Below are positions 28,126-36,498 of a stretch of DNA of 47,931 nucleotides, in pieces; position 1 is the stretch's first letter, and every line of letters starts with the position of its first letter. Below the pieces are notes generated by a model. It did no database searches, was not told where the DNA came from, and was given only the letters and a program-made list of their open reading frames with translations. The DNA is from Candidatus Burarchaeum sp. GTDB taxonomy: Archaea > Micrarchaeota > Micrarchaeia > Burarchaeales > Burarchaeaceae. The stretch covers positions 1 to 47,931 of the forward strand of contig JAUSNF010000009.1 in the NCBI GenBank assembly GCA_030646255.1, given 5' to 3'. Both the position numbers and the translations under genes were made by a program.

Positions 28126-28389
28126 ATGCATACTTGGCGCGGAAGGATACTCCGCTTTACGAATGCAGCATACTGGGAGCTTTACAAACACGGTCTTTCG
28201 CCAGAAGACGTAATTGATGTTCTGGATAACGGTTATGACTTCCCGGGAAAACAACGAAGCGAAGGCATTTATGAAAAATGCCTTCGGAAAGGTTGCGAGA
28301 TTATCAAAGTAGTGGTGGCCGAGTCATATTCGTTTGATATAAAAGAAACCGTGTGGGCGGTCGTCCACGTTATGGTTGTGAGGACATGA
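28126..28389 (+). CDS. Putative toxin, DUF4258/BrnT-RelE-like
   Basis: RFTNAAYWELYKHGLSPEDVIDVLDNG...IKVVV...WAVVHV; coupled by ATGA to the next gene. Confidence 0.65.
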   Translation: MHTWRGRILRFTNAAYWELYKHGLSPEDVIDVLDNGYDFPGKQRSEGIYEKCLRKGCEIIKVVVAESYSFDIKETVWAVVHVMVVRT

Positions 28390-28697
28390 AAATTGAGCAT
28401 GATGCGATGAAATGCGTTAAGTGCGGTGGATGGGCGAATCCAGCGAAGCTCAGACTCGACGGTGAGGCTGTGCGCGGCTGGAAATGCGCCTGCGGCGAGG
28501 ACTATATACATGGGGAGGATGCCGACAGGTTGCTGGTTGCGAACAAGGCGCGCAGGGGTCTGCTCAAAACTAAAGTATGCAAGGTTGGTAATTCCTACTC
28601 TATACGAATACCAAAGCCCATAGTTGATGCCCTGAAGCTGAAGGGAAAGACGCTCAGCATACTGCTCGAGCCAAAGCGCCTGGTGCTGGTAGAATGA
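28386..28697 (+). CDS. Putative antitoxin: zinc ribbon + AbrB/MazE domain
   Basis: CVKC...WKCACGE, then KVCKVGNSYSIRIPKPIVDALKL. Confidence 0.78.
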   Translation: MKIEHDAMKCVKCGGWANPAKLRLDGEAVRGWKCACGEDYIHGEDADRLLVANKARRGLLKTKVCKVGNSYSIRIPKPIVDALKLKGKTLSILLEPKRLVLVE

Positions 28698-28957
28698 TTA
28701 TCGATGCCGTTGTAAAGCCCAGCTCGCGCAAGTTCGAAGCCAAACTCGGGCAAGGCGAAGGCGGCAAGCCCCTCCTGCGCGTTTCCCTCACCGAGCCGGC
28801 CGAGAAGAACAAGGCCAATCTGGAGCTCCTCAAGGAGCTCTCGCGCCTGCTGGGCTGCGAGGTGAGGCTAGTTGCAGGCGCAAAGTCGAAGAAGAAAAAG
28901 CTCGAGCTGGCCATTGACGAGGCATCTTTTTACGCGAAGCTTCAAAACCATAAATAG
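28694..28957 (+). CDS. DUF167 (UPF0235/YggU) family protein
   Basis: VKPSS, VSLTEPAEKNKANLEL, LVAGAKSKKK. Confidence 0.88.
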   Translation: MIIDAVVKPSSRKFEAKLGQGEGGKPLLRVSLTEPAEKNKANLELLKELSRLLGCEVRLVAGAKSKKKKLELAIDEASFYAKLQNHK

Positions 28958-28983
28958 TGGGACTTGCGCGAGGAATGCGAACC

Positions 28984-28991
28984 TATAAATA
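28984..28991 (+). promoter_or_regulatory. TATA box of the his operon
   Basis: TATAAATA 24 nt upstream of ATG 29016. Confidence 0.6.
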
Positions 28992-29015
28992 GTGGGAAGG
29001 ACAGAAGGATAGAAT

Positions 29016-29259
29016 ATGAACGGCAGACTCGGGGCTCTCGAAGGGAGGGAGTTCCTTCATCAGGCTCGATTCAAAGGCGCGCCTAGTTCTGCCGCTGCTT
29101 CTGCGTGAGAGGCTCGGCATCGCGAAGGGCGGGCCAAAGGTTGTGGGGCTTAAGATTGTCAGCATAGCGGACGGGCTGGCAACAGTCACAGTCTCGAAAT
29201 CCGAAGGAGTAGCGGGAGCGCTGCCCATATCAAAAAACTCGAAAGAGGTGCGAACATGA
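29016..29259 (+). CDS. AbrB/MazE-like regulator, split by a +1 frameshift at CTT-CAT (29055-29060)
   Basis: ATG 29016 frame reads MNGRLGALEGREFL-H... (stop 29106-08); +1 frame reads IRLDSKARLVLPLLLRERLGIAKG...EVRT* (AbrB core) and has no ATG/GTG/TTG ahead of the core (in-frame TGA at 29017). Confidence 0.7.
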
Positions 29260-29342
29260 ACAAAAAACAGGCGTTGGCAAGGGATGTGCTTCATGCAGTC
29301 CGGCATATTTCCTACTTCCCTCACTTCTACGTCAATTCCTGA
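29256..29342 (+). CDS. His leader ORF / zero-frame N-terminus of frameshifted HisD (28 aa, 3 His)
   Basis: GAGGTG site; ATG overlapping the AbrB TGA; MNKKQALARDVLHAVRHISYFPHFYVNS*. Confidence 0.7.
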   Translation: MNKKQALARDVLHAVRHISYFPHFYVNS

Positions 29343-30594
29343 CTTTATCTCCCTTAGGCGCACAGAGGACAAGAACGCAAGGGAGACTGCGGCGCGGATA
29401 CTTTCAGACGTCCAGTCGCGCGGCTTTTCCGCCATAGCTGCCTACTCGCGGAAGTTCGACGCTTTTAACTTAACCAAGCAAAATTGCCTCATAACGCGTG
29501 AAGAATTTGACGAGGCTGCCTCGCGCGTTACCCCTGGGCAGCGGCAGGCAATGCGAAAGATGAAGGGCAGGTTGGAATCTTTTGCGCTGCTGCAGAAATC
29601 AAAGATGGACGACGTCTCGCAGAAAAGCAAAGACGGCACAACCACATTGAAATTCATGCCCGTGGAACGCGTTGGCATATATGTGCCTGCCGGCCGCGCA
29701 CCGCTATTCTCCTCGCTTTTCATGGCCGCCGTGCCTGCGTGCATAGCCGGCGTGCAAGACTTGGTGGTTTGCACCCCGCCACAAAAGGATGGCAAGGCAA
29801 ATCCATTCATTCTCGCAGCCGCCCGCATGTGCGGCATTGACAAAGTCTGCAAGCTCGGCGGCGTGCAGGCAATCGGCGCGATGGCTTTTGGTGTTGAAGG
29901 GCTTATCAGGCCAGTTGACGTCGTTTGTGGGCCAGGCAATGCTTACGTGAGCGCCGCAAAGCAGATTGTCGCATCTTCAGGTGTGAGAATTGACGTTCCT
30001 GCCGGCCCCTCTGAAGTTCTCGTGATTGCCGACCAATCCGCAAATCCTTCTTTCGTGGCCGCGGATATGCTTGCACAGGCAGAGCACGGAGCCGACAGCG
30101 CGGCAATCTGCATCTGCACATCCATGCGATTGGCCGAACGGGTTTCCCAAGAGCTCGCTGCACAGCTGGCATCTCTTCCTACGCAGAATCCGGCGCGCCA
30201 GTCGATACCAAAATGGGGCCGGATTTTCGTGGTACGGGACATTGACGTTGCGCTGGATGCGGCGAACGCGCTTGCGCCAGAGCACCTTGAGCTGATGGTT
30301 GCGGATGCCCTGAAGTGGCTGCCAAAAATCAAGAATGCAGGTGCGGTCTTCCTCGCGACTGGCGAGGCTTTCTGCGACTACGGGATGGGCTGCGGCAACC
30401 ACATACTCCCGACGAACTCGTCGGCAAGGGCCTGGGGAGGCGTAAGCGTGCAGACTTTCGGCAAGTGGATGTACGTCGAGTCTTTGAGCGCAGGGGCGCA
30501 GCAGAGGCTTGCATGCGTTTCGGCCCTTCTTGCAAGAATAGAGGGCTTGGAGGCGCACGCAAGAGCGGCGGAGAAAAGGGCAGGCGGTGATTAA
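29293..30594 (+). CDS. hisD: Histidinol dehydrogenase (may begin at 29256 via +1 frameshift)
   Basis: VGIYVPAG, GGVQAIGAMAFG, GPGNAYV, IDVPAGPSEV, DMLAQAEHG, APEHLEL, NHILPT. Confidence 0.95.
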   Translation: MQSGIFPTSLTSTSIPDFISLRRTEDKNARETAARILSDVQSRGFSAIAAYSRKFDAFNLTKQNCLITREEFDEAASRVTPGQRQAMRKMKGRLESFALLQKSKMDDVSQKSKDGTTTLKFMPVERVGIYVPAGRAPLFSSLFMAAVPACIAGVQDLVVCTPPQKDGKANPFILAAARMCGIDKVCKLGGVQAIGAMAFGVEGLIRPVDVVCGPGNAYVSAAKQIVASSGVRIDVPAGPSEVLVIADQSANPSFVAADMLAQAEHGADSAAICICTSMRLAERVSQELAAQLASLPTQNPARQSIPKWGRIFVVRDIDVALDAANALAPEHLELMVADALKWLPKIKNAGAVFLATGEAFCDYGMGCGNHILPTNSSARAWGGVSVQTFGKWMYVESLSAGAQQRLACVSALLARIEGLEAHARAAEKRAGGD

Positions 30595-30595
30595 T

Positions 30596-32338
30596 ATGGT
30601 TTCATGGGATGCAAAAAAAGCGGCAAGGAAGGATATAGTCGAGCTTGCGCCATACGTCTGCGCGAGGGACATCTGCAAAAGCGCAGACGTTTTCCTTGAC
30701 GCAAATGAAAGCCCTTACGGTGATGGCGGGCTCAACCGCTATCCAGATTCAGACCAGCTGGAGCTACGCAAGGAACTTGCAAACTATGTTGGCAAGGGCG
30801 TGGAACTGCAAAACGTCCTTGCAGGCAATGGCTCGGATGAGATAATCGACATGGCCATCCGGACTTTTGCAGGGAAGGGCTGCAACGTGCTCTGCGCCTA
30901 TCCTGATTATTCCATGTATGCGATAGCTGCAGCCATAAACGGCGTGGAGGCAAGGCAGGCGGAGCTTGGCAAAGGCTTCGCGCTTCGCGCAGACAAGTTT
31001 CTCGCGCGCGCAGATGCGCGCACGAAAATAATTTTCCTCTCCTCGCCGAACAGCCCTACCGGGCGGGAGCAGCCGCTTGCGGAGATTGAAAAACTGGCAG
31101 CCAGCACGCAGGCACTGGTTTTTGTAGATGAGGCGTATTTCGAATTTTCAGGCAAAAGTGCAGCGTCGCTAATCAAAAAATACAAGAACATACTTGTCAG
31201 CCGCACGTTCTCCAAGGCCTGGGGCCTTGCGGGAATCCGACTTGGCTATGCCGTTTCGTCCCCGGAAGTGATTTCGCTTCTTAGAAAAGTCAAGATGCCT
31301 TACAACGTCTCGCGGCTCGCCGAGCGGGCTGCCCTTTCGGCCCTGAGGTTTGACAAAGCGAAGATGCGCATGAACGTACGGAAGATGCAGCGCGAGCGCC
31401 AGCGGCTTTCGGACGCGCTGTCGTGCCTCGGCTTCTCAGTTTTTCCATCAAGCACAAACTTCCTTCTCTGCCGTTGCCCGACAGGCACGAGCGCACCGAG
31501 ACTTCAGAAGCGCTTGATGGCCCAAGGCGTCATCATCCGCGATTTTTCTGCGAAACGCAGGCTTGAAAACTGCGTCAGGATAACCGTGGGCAAGCCAGCC
31601 GAGAATTCCCGCCTTCTTTCAGCCATGCGTAAGCTAGCCGGCCTGCAATTCGATGCAGTCATATTCGACATGGACGGCGTGCTCGTCGACGTCAGGCGCT
31701 CGTACCAGGTGGCAATAAGGAAAACGGCAAATGAACTGCTTGGCAAGGATGCGATTCGCGCATCTGATGTTGCTTCAATAAAGTCAAACCCCTGGTTCAA
31801 CGATGATTTTGACGCAACATTCCGCCTCGTAACCCTTGCGCGCGAGTGCAGGCTTTCTGCTGCAAAATGCGCAACAAGGGTAAGCGCGCGAGAGCGGAAC
31901 AGCAAGGAGTATGCGCGCGCAGTCGAAAAATTCCAGTCCCTGTACCTGGGCAGGCGGTTCACCGGGCTGATACGGAATGAAAAGCCGCTAATCTCCTTGG
32001 CAACACTTGAAAAGCTCAGGTCTGCGGGCCTGGCGCTTGGAATTGCGACAGGAAGGTCGAGGGCCGAAGCCCTTTTCGCAATCCGCAAGAACGGATGGTC
32101 CGAATACTTTTCAGCAGTGGTGTGCGCCGAGGACCGCGGCCGCAAAAAGCCGTTCCCCGACTCGCTCCTCCTGGCGAAGAAACTGCTCGGAGCAAAGAAT
32201 CCGATTTACGTGGGCGACAGCCCTGCGGATGCGCTGGCTGCAAGAAATGCCGGCATGCCGTCTGCAATGATTTGCGACCTTAGCGGAGATTTTGCACTTG
32301 CGAAGACGGACGCAATAGTTGGCGTGGTGATTGGATGA
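30596..32338 (+). CDS. hisC: Histidinol-phosphate aminotransferase fused to C-terminal HAD phosphatase
   Basis: LDANESP, NRYPD, GNGSDEII, VDEAYFEF, SRTFSKAWGLAGIRLGY; from about 31649 FDMDGVLVD, ATGR, KPFP, YVGDSPAD. Confidence 0.93.
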   Translation: MVSWDAKKAARKDIVELAPYVCARDICKSADVFLDANESPYGDGGLNRYPDSDQLELRKELANYVGKGVELQNVLAGNGSDEIIDMAIRTFAGKGCNVLCAYPDYSMYAIAAAINGVEARQAELGKGFALRADKFLARADARTKIIFLSSPNSPTGREQPLAEIEKLAASTQALVFVDEAYFEFSGKSAASLIKKYKNILVSRTFSKAWGLAGIRLGYAVSSPEVISLLRKVKMPYNVSRLAERAALSALRFDKAKMRMNVRKMQRERQRLSDALSCLGFSVFPSSTNFLLCRCPTGTSAPRLQKRLMAQGVIIRDFSAKRRLENCVRITVGKPAENSRLLSAMRKLAGLQFDAVIFDMDGVLVDVRRSYQVAIRKTANELLGKDAIRASDVASIKSNPWFNDDFDATFRLVTLARECRLSAAKCATRVSARERNSKEYARAVEKFQSLYLGRRFTGLIRNEKPLISLATLEKLRSAGLALGIATGRSRAEALFAIRKNGWSEYFSAVVCAEDRGRKKPFPDSLLLAKKLLGAKNPIYVGDSPADALAARNAGMPSAMICDLSGDFALAKTDAIVGVVIG

Positions 32339-32946
32339 AAACGAAAACAACGAAAATAGCACGGACAGCAAAAATCAAAAGAAAAACCGGCGAGACCGAC
32401 ATAGCGCTCGCGCTAACTCTGGACGGCAGCGGCAGGTCCGAAATCGCAACGGGCATCGGCTTTTTCGACCACATGCTCTGCTCGTTTGCAAAGCACGGCC
32501 TTTTCGACCTGGAGCTCTCGGCAAAGGGCGATTTGCAGGTCGACCAGCACCACTTGGTGGAGGACACTGGCATAGCGCTAGGCGAGGCATTCGCAGCAGC
32601 GCTTGGCGACAAGAAGGGCATAGCGCGCGCAGGCAGCTTTGCCTTCCCGATGGATGAAACTCTTTCGCTGGTGTCCGTGGATTTCGGCGGGAGGTCTTTG
32701 CTCACGTTCGACGCCAAATTCTCCCGCGGGTTCATCGGCCGCCTGCAGTCGGACCTCGTGCGGGAATTCTTCGCGGGCTTTGTGCAGGGTGCGCGCTGCA
32801 ATGTTTGCGTGCGGCTCCTGTACGAAGGCAATGACCACCACAAGTGCGAGGGAATATTCAAGGGCTTTGCCCGCGCGCTGGCGCAGGCTTGCGAAGTCAG
32901 GGCACGCGCAGGGGCTGCGGTGCCTTCGACAAAAGGGGTGATTTGA
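32335..32946 (+). CDS. hisB: Imidazoleglycerol-phosphate dehydratase
   Basis: RKTGETDI, GFFDHML, DQHHLVED, PMDE, NDHHKCE, PSTKG. Confidence 0.97.
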   Translation: MKTKTTKIARTAKIKRKTGETDIALALTLDGSGRSEIATGIGFFDHMLCSFAKHGLFDLELSAKGDLQVDQHHLVEDTGIALGEAFAAALGDKKGIARAGSFAFPMDETLSLVSVDFGGRSLLTFDAKFSRGFIGRLQSDLVREFFAGFVQGARCNVCVRLLYEGNDHHKCEGIFKGFARALAQACEVRARAGAAVPSTKGVI

Positions 32947-33806
32947 TGGAAGAAAAATTCAGATTGGTGATACCGAACAAGGGCGTGCTGTACGAGCCCA
33001 CGCTCCGGCTGCTCGAGTCCGCCGGCGTGAGCGTAGGCCGGAACGGCAACGGCGGCCTTTTCTCGAAGAGCAAGGACGGGAAGCTGTCAATACTCTTCGC
33101 GCGGGCGCAGGACGTGCCGCTCTACGTGGAAACCGGCGCCGCGGACGCAGGGATAACTGGGGAAGATATGGTGTATGAGAAAGGAAAGCGCGTGAAGGTA
33201 GTGTCCAATCTCGGCTACGGCAAGTGCCGCGTATCTATTGCCGTACCCAAATCATCTCGAATAACTTCGGTCTCGCAGCTCGCGGGCAAGCGCATAGCAA
33301 CAAAGCTTCCCAACATCGCGCGCGAGTATTTTGAAAAGGAGGGCTTGAAGGTCGAGCTGCTCGAGCTGGCCGGTGCAACCGAGCTGGCGCCAAACATTGG
33401 CCTCGCGGATGCGATAGTGGATCATGTGAGCACGGGTGCCACCCTCGAAGCCAACAACCTCAGGGAGCTCAGCACAATTTTGGAATCCGAGGCTTGCCTG
33501 ATATCGCGGCCGGAGGCTGCAAAAAAACCGGAATTGCAGGAGCTGCAAATCGCGTTCGAGGGCGTGCTCCGGGCCAAATCTTCGCGGTACCTCATGCTGA
33601 ATGCGGCCAGCGATGAAATACTGCGTAACGTTCTGTCGTGCCTGCCCTCAATGGAAAGCCCGACCGTGCTCAAGCTTGCCAGGGCGGGTGAGTATGCTGT
33701 GCACTCAGTAGTGAAGGCTGAGGAACTGGGCGTGCTAGTGCCCAAACTCAAGCGGGCAGGCGCAAAGGACATTCTGGTCCTCGCAATGGAGCGGGTGATA
33801 TTGTGA
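32946..33806 (+). CDS. hisG: ATP phosphoribosyltransferase (long form)
   Basis: IPNKG, RAQDVPLYV, GITGED, IATK, GATELAP..GLADAIVD..STGATL, C-terminal regulatory domain (ESPTV...GAKDILV). Confidence 0.96.
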   Translation: MEEKFRLVIPNKGVLYEPTLRLLESAGVSVGRNGNGGLFSKSKDGKLSILFARAQDVPLYVETGAADAGITGEDMVYEKGKRVKVVSNLGYGKCRVSIAVPKSSRITSVSQLAGKRIATKLPNIAREYFEKEGLKVELLELAGATELAPNIGLADAIVDHVSTGATLEANNLRELSTILESEACLISRPEAAKKPELQELQIAFEGVLRAKSSRYLMLNAASDEILRNVLSCLPSMESPTVLKLARAGEYAVHSVVKAEELGVLVPKLKRAGAKDILVLAMERVIL

Positions 33807-34393
33807 TAGGGCTAGTGGATTTCGGCAGCGGGAATTTCCGCAGCGTTTCGCTGGCTGTGCGCAGATGCGGAGACCGCGCAAAAGTGGTCCGCCGGGAGCG
33901 CGAGCTGCAGAAACTCAATGCACTCATCCTGCCGGGCGTGGGCTCTTTTGAGGTGTTGAAGGGCCAAGATGCGCTGGTGCGCGGCATACGGAAATTCGCG
34001 GCGAGCGGCAGGCCTGTACTTGGTATATGCCTGGGCATGCAAGCCCTGTTCGAGCGCAGCGAGGAATGCGCTGGCGTAAACGGCCTCTCGCTAATTCGGG
34101 GTGCAGTGAAAAAACTCAACGCTCCGCGCCTGCCGCAGATGGGCTGGAACCAGCTCCGCATAATCCGAAACTCGCAGTTGCTGGACGGGATTGCGGATGG
34201 CACCCATTTCTATTTCGCGAATTCCTACGCATGCTTTCCTGAGGAAGATGTCGTTTCGGCAGCATGCGATTATGACGGCGAGTTTGCGGCTGTCGTGGAA
34301 AAAGAAACTTTCTTCGGCGTGCAGTTCCACCCTGAGAAGAGCGGGGAGGCGGGATTGCGCGTGCTGAAGAATTTCGTTGAAATGTGCGGGTGA
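33803..34393 (+). CDS. hisH: Imidazole glycerol phosphate synthase glutaminase subunit
   Basis: DFGSGN, LPGVG, LGICLGMQ, PQMGWN, GVQFHPEKSG. Confidence 0.96.
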   Translation: MIGLVDFGSGNFRSVSLAVRRCGDRAKVVRRERELQKLNALILPGVGSFEVLKGQDALVRGIRKFAASGRPVLGICLGMQALFERSEECAGVNGLSLIRGAVKKLNAPRLPQMGWNQLRIIRNSQLLDGIADGTHFYFANSYACFPEEDVVSAACDYDGEFAAVVEKETFFGVQFHPEKSGEAGLRVLKNFVEMCG

Positions 34394-34397
34394 TGGG

Positions 34398-35111
34398 ATG
34401 CGATTGATAGGGGCATTAGACTTGTCAGATGGGATGTGCGTGCGCCTTGTGCGCGGAAGGCTAGCTACAGCTAAGGTTTACTATGCAAACCCGCTTGACG
34501 CGCTGGCGGCGCTTGAGAAAGCGGGCGCGGATTCCGTACATGTCATTGACCTTGACGCGGCCATCTTAGGGGAGCGGCGGAATGCAGGCGCAATCTTTGC
34601 AATTCTCAAGCAGGCCTCCCTGCCCGCGCAGGTTGGCGGCGGGATACGCTCTTTGGCCACTGCAAGGGAACTGCTAGATGCTGGCGCAGAGCGTGTGGTC
34701 GTTTCGAGCGCGCTCGCCGAAGACACCGGGCTTGTACGGACAATGTGCGAAGAGCTTGGAGGTAGGCGAATAGCCGCGGCCATAGATGACGATAAAGGCA
34801 GGACTATGACTCGGGGCTGGACTTCAAATGCAGACAGCAGCGCGGGCCATCTTGCCAGAAAGGCTGCTTCATTGGGCGTTTCCGAAATAATTTACACAGA
34901 CATCTCGCGGGACGGCTCGCTCGAAGGGCTGAATGAAGAAAATGCAAGAGCTTTCATACGCGGAAGTCCCCTGCCCGTTGTCTTGGCGGGAGGCGTGGCT
35001 TCAACAGCTGACGCACTCAGGGCAGAGCGCGCAGGCGCAGCGGGGCTCATAGTGGGCAAGGCATTCTACGAAGGAAAATTCAACTTCATGGAGGCGAGGC
35101 GATGCTTGTGA
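34398..35111 (+). CDS. hisA: ProFAR isomerase
   Basis: ALDLSDGMCVRLVRG, HVIDLDAA, QVGGGIRS, YTDISRDG, GLIVGKAFYEG. Confidence 0.95.
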   Translation: MRLIGALDLSDGMCVRLVRGRLATAKVYYANPLDALAALEKAGADSVHVIDLDAAILGERRNAGAIFAILKQASLPAQVGGGIRSLATARELLDAGAERVVVSSALAEDTGLVRTMCEELGGRRIAAAIDDDKGRTMTRGWTSNADSSAGHLARKAASLGVSEIIYTDISRDGSLEGLNEENARAFIRGSPLPVVLAGGVASTADALRAERAGAAGLIVGKAFYEGKFNFMEARRCL

Positions 35112-35869
35112 AACGTATAATTCCATGCCTCGACTGCACCTTCGTGCGCGGAAAGCCGCAGGTTGTGAAGGGCACGCAGTTCAGGCGCCTGAAATATGCT
35201 GGTGTACCTTGGGAACTAGCCGAGCAGTATTATGCAGCTGGCGCGGACGAAATAGTCTTGCTCGACATAAGCGCATCAAACGAGGGCAGAAAAACAATGG
35301 CCGACATTGTGCGCAGGACCACGGAAAATGTCTTCGTGCCCGTGTGCATCGGAGGCGGCATACGCTCAGTCAACGATTTTAGGCGCATGCTGAATGCTGG
35401 CGCGGACAAGTGCGCGATAAACACAAGTGCAATATTGAATCCTGCGCTCATACGCAATGCGTCAAAAATATTCGGCAGCAACTGCGTCGTGGTCTCGATA
35501 GATGCCAAGAAGTTCGGGCAGCGCTACGAATGCATGATTTACGGAGGCAGGAAAAGGGCGGGCCTGGATGCGATTGAATGGGCTAAAAAAGCCACTGAAC
35601 TGGGCGCAGGCGAAATACTTCTCACATCCGTGGATGCGGACGGCACAAGGGCAGGCTATGATTTGGAGCTCTTGCGCAAAGTATGCGATGCCGTGGATGT
35701 GCCCGTAATCGCAAGCGGCGGATGCGGCTCGCCCAAGGATATGCTGGCCGCATTGAAGCAGACCGACGCGAGCGCAGTTCTTGCGGCAGGCATCTTCCAC
35801 TACAAAAAATACTCGATTCGGCAAGTGAAAAAATATCTTGAAAAAAATGGCGTGGAGGTGAGGCTATGA
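35102..35869 (+). CDS. hisF: Imidazole glycerol phosphate synthase cyclase subunit
   Basis: MLVKRIIPCLD, VVKG, GADEIVLLDI, GAGEILLTSVDADGT, PVIASGG. Confidence 0.97.
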   Translation: MLVKRIIPCLDCTFVRGKPQVVKGTQFRRLKYAGVPWELAEQYYAAGADEIVLLDISASNEGRKTMADIVRRTTENVFVPVCIGGGIRSVNDFRRMLNAGADKCAINTSAILNPALIRNASKIFGSNCVVVSIDAKKFGQRYECMIYGGRKRAGLDAIEWAKKATELGAGEILLTSVDADGTRAGYDLELLRKVCDAVDVPVIASGGCGSPKDMLAALKQTDASAVLAAGIFHYKKYSIRQVKKYLEKNGVEVRL

Positions 35870-36498
35870 AACTGAACAAAAGGGCTGCCGTTGAATTTGC
35901 AAAAGGCATGGACTTCAAAAAGCAGGGCGGCCTCGTGCCCGCAATAGTGCGAACGCCGGAATGCGAGGTGCTGATGCTTGCCTACATGAACCAGGAAGCG
36001 CTGATGCGTACGCTCACCACTGGCAAAATGTGGTATTACAGCAGGAGCAGGCGCAGGCTTTGGAGGAAAGGAGAGGAAAGCGGCAACACGCAGAAGCTCC
36101 TTGCAGTCGCAAAGGACTGCGATTGCGATTCGCTTCTCTTTACAGTTGAGCAGAAAGGGCCTGCGTGCCACACGGGAAACAAAACCTGCTTTTTTCCAAC
36201 CAACTCCACGCCGGAGCCTTTCTCGCTAGCCGAGCTCTTCTCGCTAATCGAGGAAAGGAAAAAATCCGGAGACAAAAAATCCTATACGCGCAGGCTTTTG
36301 GACGACAAAAACCTCCTCTCATCAAAAATCTACGAGGAGAGTGCCGAGCTTGTCGAGGCATCCAGGAAAAAGGAAAAGAAGGAAGTCGTGTGGGAGGCCG
36401 CAGATTTGCTGTACCACATGTTCGTGCTGCTGGCCTCGAAAAATGTTTGCCTTGGCGACATCGAGCGGGAGCTGGCGAGAAGGCGGAAAGAGAAGTAG
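35866..36498 (+). CDS. hisIE: Bifunctional PR-AMP cyclohydrolase / PR-ATP pyrophosphatase
   Basis: YSRSRRRLWRKGEESGN, DCDCD, ACHTG..TCF; SYT, KIYEESAE, WEAADLLYH. Confidence 0.96.
   Translation: MKLNKRAAVEFAKGMDFKKQGGLVPAIVRTPECEVLMLAYMNQEALMRTLTTGKMWYYSRSRRRLWRKGEESGNTQKLLAVAKDCDCDSLLFTVEQKGPACHTGNKTCFFPTNSTPEPFSLAELFSLIEERKKSGDKKSYTRRLLDDKNLLSSKIYEESAELVEASRKKEKKEVVWEAADLLYHMFVLLASKNVCLGDIERELARRRKEK

Follow-up and report, generated by a model that had tools for sequence, protein, structure and literature searches.

At the head of the histidine biosynthesis (his) operon of Candidatus Burarchaeum sp., two short open reading frames (ORFs) opening with ATG, here called leaders, precede the gene for histidinol dehydrogenase (hisD). 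The locus was analysed within a stretch of 47,931 nucleotides (nt), positions 1 to 47,931 of the forward strand of contig JAUSNF010000009.1 in assembly GCA_030646255.1, which is called the window throughout; the source genome is a metagenome-assembled genome (MAG) of 1,214,477 bases in 61 contigs, 84% complete. Each leader contains one copy of a compact word, the cassette, in which a Shine-Dalgarno (SD)-like element is followed by a spacer of three bases, CTT and a histidine codon, and in each case the +1 frame behind the cassette encodes a recognisable protein. The two cassettes are candidate sites of programmed +1 frameshifting. The features that bear on this reading, given by coordinates and strand, are the following.

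29016..29108, + strand: ORF1 leader, zero frame, 30 codons; ATG at 29016, stop at 29106-29108; translation MNGRLGALEGREFLH...
29043..29060, + strand: cassette 1, GGGAGGGAGTTC CTT CAT, with SD-like element, spacer TTC, putative P-site CTT at 29055-57 and putative A-site CAT at 29058-60
29059..29259, + strand: predicted AbrB/SpoVT-fold regulator in the +1 frame of ORF1, 66 codons plus TGA; reads IRLDSKARLVLP...
29245..29250, + strand: Shine-Dalgarno sequence GAGGTG, 5 nt before the ORF2 ATG
29256..29342, + strand: ORF2 leader, 28 codons; ATG at 29256, stop at 29340-29342; translation MNKKQALARDVLH...
29277..29294, + strand: cassette 2, GCAAGGGATGTG CTT CAT, with putative P-site CTT at 29289-91 and putative A-site CAT at 29292-94
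29284..30594, + strand: hisD (histidinol dehydrogenase) in the +1 frame of ORF2; Pfam PF00815

The starts of the two leaders lie 240 nt apart in a common frame, and both open with ATG-AAC. ORF1 is preceded by the SD-like sequence AAGGA at 29005-29009 and carries the core word AGG-GAG-TTC-CTT-CAT (29046-29060); the core word of ORF2 is AGG-GAT-GTG-CTT-CAT (29280-29294), and CAT is the first His codon in both. Re-reading of the sequence bore out the original prediction, made from the letters of the same DNA, in its coordinates and sequences, the shared frame, the ATG-AAC starts and the position of CAT as first His codon. The trans-frame product predicted at site 1 comprises 14 + 66 = 80 amino acids (aa), which is the length that had been claimed for it. 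In the AbrB frame a stop codon (TGA, 29017-19) lies upstream, and there is no ATG, GTG or TTG until 29143, well inside the conserved core; because this frame of the window offers no start codon, the shift at site 1 appears to be obligatory for the AbrB-type protein. The ATG of ORF2 and the stop of the AbrB frame overlap as ATGA (29256-29259), suggesting a termination-reinitiation coupling that would chain both candidate frameshift sites. A related genome (G002) shows the overlap too, and in another locus (L058) the AbrB-type gene overlaps a histidine ammonia-lyase gene in this manner.

The identity of the two +1-frame proteins, named as AbrB-like and HisD in the original prediction, was supported by profile searches. 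HisD gave a full-length match to PF00815 (E 6.9e-137, residues 26-432 of 436). For the smaller protein, a profile of 57 family sequences matched the N-terminal domains of AbrB, Abh and SpoVT in the PDB at E 5e-4 to 1.3e-3, and two family members scored 29.2 and 29.9 bits against TIGR01439, for which the cutoff is 28.3. The window copy alone had no NCBIfam hit, and its only Pfam match was to MraZ (E 0.052, 14 bits, below the cutoff of 23). An AlphaFold2 (AF2) monomer model of the window protein had a predicted local distance difference test score (pLDDT) of 87.6, and its Foldseek matches were weak, with the AbrB N-domain 1yfb at the top (E 0.09), followed by SpoVT and MazE, none of them at E 0.001 or better. 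The family also has a conserved C-terminal motif of its own, P-x-S-[KR]-N-x-x-E. Judged from its sequence, the +1-frame protein is most likely a small DNA-binding regulator. The profile, TIGR01439 and weak fold matches make its likeness to AbrB, SpoVT, MazE and MraZ, from which it differs as a distinct Micrarchaeota family with its own C-terminal motif, one that would be expressed through a recoding leader. MraZ, moreover, contains two tandem AbrB-like repeats (~150 aa) and heads the dcw cluster, whereas here a single domain of 66 aa has his neighbours.

The frame layout was recovered from independent assemblies. An independently assembled contig from one run spans 29031-29800 and is identical to the window there. 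From another sample of that study, contigs match 29240-29434 without a difference and 29047-29135 with 2 substitutions, and a run from a different study (peat) gave a match over 29020-29167, again with 2 substitutions. Over the sites, the contigs of these three runs from two studies contain 0 gaps, which answers the concern about single-base indel errors that the original prediction had raised.

Conservation of the cassettes and their frame relations

The AbrB-type family was searched with an 8-sequence profile in 401 genomes sampled from the class and was found in 87 of them (Micrarchaeota, DPANN archaea). The analysis covered 60 loci with 4-kb flanks and 38 metagenome loci obtained by an 8-row alignment scan, several metagenome loci being duplicates of genome loci; the frame counts below refer to 78 unique family loci. 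The unpublished genome G098 underlies none of the claims made here. The window genome holds a single copy of the AbrB-type protein, and close homologues occur in all 3 other genomes of its family.

Two relatives (G001 and G002) share with the window an identical GGGAGGGAGTTCCTTCAT, with a zero-frame ATG upstream, the core in the +1 frame and no ATG, GTG or TTG before the core in the AbrB frame. In a third (G003) the corresponding stretch reads ATG AAA GGA CGT GAA TTC CTT CAT. Here Gly-Arg-Glu is kept (GGG AGG GAG to GGA CGT GAA), the changes being synonymous in the leader frame and altering residues in the +1 frame. G002 has hisD behind a second cassette, AGGGATGTGCTTCAC (CAC), with its own leader ending ...ERDVLH and a leader ATG that overlaps the AbrB stop; in G001 and G003 a radical-SAM gene takes the place of hisD behind the regulator. 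Such a radical-SAM gene with its own His cassette was seen in four loci (L050 of G001, L052 of G003, L079 and L158) and matches NF045502 (variant_rSAM), near the MSMEG_0568 family; in some genomes it stands after the regulator instead of the his operon.

The change of coding frame at the site was followed in family f1, which comprises 7 sequences and includes ORF1; its ATG and the peptide ...GREFLH are retained in all seven, and ahead of the site the leader frame shows synonymous changes. Over the 21 pairs, which are not independent of each other, the counts of synonymous/nonsynonymous codon differences upstream of the site were 22/30 in the leader frame vs 11/46 and 1/39 in the others, and downstream of it 102/138 in the +1 frame vs 9/214 and 25/198. 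The coding signal of f1 changes frame at the site. The CTT-CAT word and the frame offset are conserved in the relatives despite synonymous drift, as would be expected if the original prediction holds.

Across the class, 75 His cassettes gave the consensus AAGGGATTTA CTT CAY. Its SD-like part reads AGGG(A/G)T, then 3 nt, with G at positions -8, -7 and -6 in 67, 59 and 68 of the 75. The P codon is CTT in 66 cassettes, GTT in 8 and ATT in 1, and the A codon is CAT in 48 and CAC in 27. The landing codon, the first to be read in the +1 frame, is variable (ATA, ATC, ATT, ATG, ACA, ACG, ACC or ACT, for Ile, Thr or Met), and in four loci, where the word is GGC-CAC or GCC-CAC, the His codon is still kept. 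Since both the P codon and the landing codon vary, the invariant element is the His codon of the zero frame, not the residue of the +1 frame. The SD-like register AGG(G/A)(A/G)(G/T) ends 3 nt before CTT. The 16S 3′ end, which the MAG lacks, was read in four relatives of the class, and 4/4 have the anti-SD ...GATCACCTCC. A tRNA-Leu(GAG) gene is present in the window genome. With their SD-like word, 3 nt, NTT and CAY, and with the gene in the +1 frame of an ATG leader, both window sites match this class-wide pattern, and their description as prfB-like cassettes stood.

The frames were then compared by a frame-blind scan with a weight matrix built from the cassettes of other genomes (at least 14 bits, up to 200 nt upstream of the core). 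As the matrix sites had been chosen in the right frames, their re-finding in the same loci is partly circular, and what is informative is that no cassette-like word stands in the frame of the gene itself, together with the outcome in the two remaining frames. At least one cassette match lies upstream of the core in 56 of the 78 unique loci, and 28 loci have two. The 84 matches comprise 56 in the -1 frame (core +1), 28 in the -2 frame (core +2) and 0 in the core's own frame, and the metagenome loci outside the matrix training are split in the same order as 22, 7 and 0. An ORF that opens with ATG runs up to the first cassette in that cassette's frame in 55/56 loci, compared with 8/56 and 10/56 for the other frames, and the leader ATGs have an SD-like word 4-16 nt upstream in 46/56 cases vs 10.4 expected at random positions. 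Tandem cassettes are 16, 19, 28 or 88 nt apart, always 1 mod 3, so that two successive +1 steps would carry reading from the ATG to the core.

Start codons in the AbrB frame were rarely ATG: only 8/78 unique loci have one upstream of the core. In the TTA-GTT-CAT variants the gene frame has a TAG immediately ahead of the landing codon, so that no start further upstream could serve in them. One metagenome locus (L152) has two extra T bases (CTT TTC ACA) ~60-90 nt upstream of the core, which fuse the frames at its first cassette; it reads in-frame the sequence predicted for the shifted product, and its second cassette is CTT-TGG. Bacterial MraZ loci caught by the same pattern scan had an ordinary in-frame ATG and no cassette (7/7).

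Within the window genome, both strands (~2.4 million positions) were ranked with a matrix made from other genomes only. The top score belonged to site 2 (23.4 bits), with site 1 in second place at 23.3 bits; scores then fell to ~20 bits, which we estimate to be roughly the level expected by chance. One of these, at the start of the MetRS gene (contig C40, position 15062, + strand, AAAGGTGGTTTGCTTCAC, 20.1 bits), has no ATG leader and contains an in-frame GTG, and was set aside as chance or a relic; the other matches of ~20 bits were dismissed as chance-level or as normal in-frame starts. The HisRS gene of the window genome (contig C9) has no cassette. Genome-wide scans by ORF logic for NTT-CAY returned 97 and 13 candidates, mostly ordinary starts, and were too noisy; the weight matrix was used instead.

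Histidine genes, other cassette-bearing genes and variant leaders

The same-strand downstream neighbours were surveyed in 59 loci with flanks, representatives being confirmed by Pfam or NCBIfam. Genes of his biosynthesis were found in 19 loci, HisRS in 19 and a histidine ammonia-lyase-like gene in 5. At least one histidine-related gene lies downstream in 37/59 loci, or 38 when any flank position is counted.

The cassette is not restricted to the AbrB leader. Outside it, 39 unique matches of at least 18 bits were collected, 30 of which are followed by a +1 ORF of at least 100 aa, and all of these 30 genes have an ATG leader that ends ...GR[DG]LLH. They include hisD, hisG, radical-SAM, Peptidase_M15 and several unknowns. 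No canonical upstream start in their own frame was found for 17 of the 30, and 6 of these 17 have none within 15 codons downstream either; an embedded in-frame ATG or GTG is present in 8/39 cassettes. The element is a general module, which stands also before hisG, radical-SAM and other genes and is often tandem.

Some leaders depart from the His codon. CTT-TGG (Trp) was seen instead of or beside CTT-CAY in five loci (L055 of G018, L054 of G015, L175, L152 and L079); in G018 a TrpB-like gene (NF009057) starts 1 nt past the regulator stop, and in the flanks of the four other CTT-TGG loci no Trp gene was seen. Two loci (L056 of G020 and L157) have two zero-frame sites leading to the AbrB frame, (G/A)TT-CAC and CTT-TAT/TAC, and here the Tyr codon differs only synonymously, whereas the residue of the +1 frame is replaced; in one of them a gene for glutamate formimidoyltransferase (histidine catabolism) lies divergently. 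A paralogue group of 7 loci (L063, L173, L174, L065, L077, L161 and L167) lacks CTT-CAY and has leaders of the form MGEL[QRH]R in which an AGA codon is invariant. Genes for ArgH and ornithine carbamoyltransferase follow in L063 (family search), and L173 and L174 have an ArgH-like ORF by reading only. The lead towards an Arg-type leader is weak, because these paralogues have an in-frame GTG and a frameshift is not required in them.

A wider idea can be attached tentatively to these variants, and we hold it to be possible although doubtful: the cassette might be a codon-programmable amino-acid sensor across Micrarchaeota, with paralogous AbrB-type regulators and single enzymes gated, through a +1 shift, at a codon of the amino acid that they serve. 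If so, a series of two cassettes would make the response squared and steep, and archaea would have an equivalent of attenuation and T-box control that acts by the reading frame alone.

Promoter-like boxes and neighbouring genes

The remaining features of the locus are the rest of the operon and two boxes upstream of ORF1.

30587..36498, + strand: rest of the his operon, namely hisC-HAD phosphatase fusion, hisB, hisG, hisH, hisA, hisF and hisIE (Pfam)
28950..28963, + strand: distal box ATAAATAGTGGGA, promoter-like
28984..28999, + strand: proximal box TATAAATAGTGGGAAG, TATA-like; ends 25 nt before the ATG at 29016

Two copies of ATAAATAGTGGGA lie 35 bp apart just upstream of ORF1. Their core word, ATAGTGGGA, occurs 3 times in the whole 1.2-Mb genome, twice at this locus and a third time at an unrelated one, and across the class most related loci retain the ATAAATAGTGGGA box ahead of the AbrB-type gene. 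The boxes are likely a candidate promoter and/or operator, through which the regulator could act on its own gene (autoregulation). In the operon, which is complete, hisC (class I/II aminotransferase) at 30587-32338 is fused to a C-terminal HAD hydrolase domain, which may be the histidinol-phosphate phosphatase of the pathway. Upstream of the boxes, the stretch 28126-28697 holds a 114-aa protein whose N-terminal motifs are rich in Cys and whose C-terminal part is a MazE/AbrB domain (PF04014, E 1.8e-6), preceded by an overlapping 87-aa ORF that has no Pfam hit; a DUF167 gene (28694-28957) lies downstream of it. The 87-aa and 114-aa ORFs upstream of the DUF167 gene may form a toxin-antitoxin-like pair.

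The proposed frameshift switch and its alternatives

We consider it likely, on the sequence evidence, that both sites are programmed +1 frameshift cassettes of the prfB design, in which a slowly decoded His codon replaces the stop codon, and they probably form a natural amino-acid-sensing frameshift. A ribosome would initiate at the leader ATG at 29016 or 29256 and, after 13 or 12 codons, would hold peptidyl-tRNA-Leu on CUU in the P site, while the SD-like AGGGA(G/T), three bases upstream, would pair with the 16S 3′ end. With a slow arrival of His-tRNA-His at CAU, tRNA-Leu could re-pair from CUU to UUC and reading would continue in the +1 frame; the slip is proposed because slow A-site codons are known to promote +1 shifting (prfB, Ty1 CUU_AGG_C, hungry codons; PMC5009743). 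The fraction of slipping ribosomes would rise when His-tRNA is scarce. At site 1, the shift would be apparently the sole route to the 80-aa AbrB-fold DNA-binding protein, and at site 2 it would fuse a 12-residue leader to HisD; with plentiful histidine, reading would stay in the leader frame up to the stops at 29108 and 29342. In this way the switch would couple both a transcription factor and, directly, the first his enzyme to the supply of histidyl-tRNA. The two steps would form a cascade, in which the shift at site 1 makes the regulator, termination at ATGA feeds ribosomes into ORF2, and a second shift, or independent initiation at 29284/29293, makes HisD. The sequences themselves show how the cassettes are built, that they are conserved, how the frames relate and that histidine genes lie nearby. 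We infer that ribosomes shift at these sites and that shifting rises with histidine scarcity, and any assignment of targets and regulatory sign to the AbrB-type protein would be of the same standing. The proposed response to His-tRNA supply draws on the known behaviour of hungry codons and on the gene neighbourhood.

In the prfB (RF2) cassette, AGG-GGG-TAT-CTT-TGA, an internal SD lies 3 nt before CUU. The window sites resemble it in their short zero-frame leader, in the internal SD-like element at 3 nt from a P-site CUU and in the functional protein of the +1 frame. They would further share with it a slow event in the A site and the use of frameshifting as sensor and effector at once, as passages of a 2016 recoding review describe for prfB (PMC5009743). 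They differ from it in that the A site of prfB is an in-frame UGA read by the product itself, RF2, while here it is a sense CAT or CAC (His) and the switch would respond to His-tRNA instead of RF2. Here, moreover, the host is archaeal, the genes are a regulator and biosynthetic enzymes, and the cassettes are in tandem and stand before several genes of one locus. The window element would work like prfB and is not a prfB member.

Bacterial hisL attenuation and T-boxes are alike in having a short leader that reports charged tRNA-His and controls his or HisRS genes. Such control follows the same physiological logic as the proposed switch. It differs in that hisL has a run of His codons and the present leaders have a single CAY per cassette, with one His per ORF up to the site; no Rfam T-box or leader match was found, and the output here would be a change of reading frame, not transcription termination. 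The yeast shifts of Ty1, ABP140 and EST3 (CUU-AGG-C, CUU-AGU-U) likewise have CUU in the P site and a sense codon, there a slow one, in the A site, and the Ty1-type shift depends on a scarce A-site tRNA, according to passages of the same review (PMC5009743). They exploit a constitutively rare tRNA, however, and set a fixed ratio, whereas the present sites, which are archaeal, have an ordinary His codon beside histidine genes and, in addition, an SD-like element as putative stimulator. The consulted passages of that review also describe the hungry codons of E. coli (Gallant), where starvation for a single amino acid slows its codon and promotes single-base shifts (PMC5009743). That is a laboratory phenomenon treated as error; the leaders described here would put it to natural use.

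Several points weigh against the proposed switch. The in-frame ATGs of hisD at 29284 and 29293, the latter being the landing codon itself, offer a way to HisD that needs no shift, and the MCF start is common to the window and one relative; the original claim that both proteins are made only through the shift therefore appears to hold for the AbrB-type gene, with no start codon in its frame, while for HisD the shift is formally dispensable. Some canonical start exists in the AbrB frame of 34/78 loci, mostly a GTG 4 nt past the leader ATG, so that the shift is not formally obligatory in those 34. In the 5 loci with histidine ammonia-lyase, this histidine-degrading enzyme follows or overlaps the AbrB-type gene, which fits poorly with a protein made when histidine is low. 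Re-pairing in the +1 frame is poorer for the P-site variants GTT, ATT, GGC and GCC, and ARAGORN found no tRNA-His gene in the 84%-complete MAG. Related genomes are not independent samples, and the counts given above overstate their statistical weight. Finally, we know of no demonstration of SD-stimulated +1 shifting on archaeal ribosomes.

Constitutive shifting is the alternative that survives best, and we judge it unlikely. Here the shift would be of fixed ratio or 'corrective' and would set low expression, the His codon being slow in general or contributing to a nascent-peptide signal (...GR[DG]LLH). The leader peptide motif G-R-(D/G)-L-L-H is indeed conserved itself, cassettes are carried by radical-SAM/SPASM, Peptidase_M15 and several unknown genes that have no evident link to histidine, and several loci couple the AbrB-type gene to the gene for histidine degradation. 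Against this, the His codon is the sole invariant element while P and landing codons vary, 37/59 loci lie directly upstream of his, HisRS or histidine ammonia-lyase genes, and variant leaders with CTT-TGG adjoin a TrpB-like gene. Established hungry-codon behaviour (PMC5009743), furthermore, renders a +1 site at a sense codon inherently sensitive to how much cognate tRNA is available.

A reading without any shift, to which we give a markedly lower probability, would have the SD-like element drive non-canonical or embedded initiation in the gene frame, with the leaders as ordinary upstream ORFs that modulate it; the starts would be the landing codon (ATH or ACG), or an ATT, ATG or GTG at -5 of the cassette. 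The landing codon, frequently ATC, ATA, ATT or ACG, does follow the SD-like element at 8-9 nt, and a subset of cassettes (8/39, as well as hisD of the window at 29284) embeds an in-frame ATG or GTG, to which the canonical starts in 34/78 loci may be added. Many landing codons, however, are ACA, ACC, ACT or GGC and thus not near-cognate starts, and the TTA-GTT-CAT variants have TAG in the gene frame directly before the landing codon. Initiation in the gene frame would also leave unexplained why the leader is in the cassette frame in 55/56 loci, why tandem spacing is always 1 mod 3, and why CAT and CAC interchange while the landing residue changes.

The conserved word could act instead as a DNA operator, an RNA structure or a protein-binding site, its overlap with short ORFs being incidental and the AbrB-type ORF being expressed otherwise, which we regard as very improbable. 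The cassette is conserved at the nucleotide level, a small hairpin can pair GAAGGGA with UCCUUC, and a separate conserved box already marks the likely promoter. A search of Rfam over 28700-29600 gave no family match at E up to 1, and the 3′ mRNA fold was no better than that of shuffles (z = -1.41), both of which speak against a nucleic-acid motif; the strict frame rules, the SD-bearing ATG leaders and the synonymous drift in the leader frame are, in turn, properties of translated sequence.

Assembly indels or decaying pseudogenes, which the origin of the window in a MAG of 61 contigs at 84% completeness might bring to mind, are already refuted in practice by the gap-free contigs of three runs and two studies and by dozens of genomes and metagenome contigs, assembled independently, that show the same layout followed by an intact and conserved protein. 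Transcriptional slippage was ruled out, there being no homopolymer run at the sites, as was a -1 frameshift, for which the frame is wrong and the X_XXY_YYZ heptamer is missing.

A +1 switch that senses histidyl-tRNA would fill a gap named in the 2016 recoding review, a passage of which considers that hungry-codon shifting could make starvation-specific trans-frame proteins and adds that 'no examples are known' (PMC5009743). The papers listed by literature searches, from which subscription journals fell outside coverage, included no later report of a natural hungry-codon trans-frame case; nor did they include any report of an amino-acid-sensing frameshift on a his operon, in agreement with the original prediction, which knew of none. 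If the switch is real, it would be the first natural case of a starvation-specific trans-frame protein and would turn the use of reading-frame choice as a metabolite sensor at ordinary sense codons into a directly testable question. It would explain how a conserved DPANN regulator can lack an initiation codon in the frame that encodes it; gene callers that depend on start codons should fail on such a layout. The tandem arrangement suggests a built-in sharpening of the response. For the archaea, in which the control of amino-acid operons is poorly understood, the cassettes would represent a new way of amino-acid sensing.

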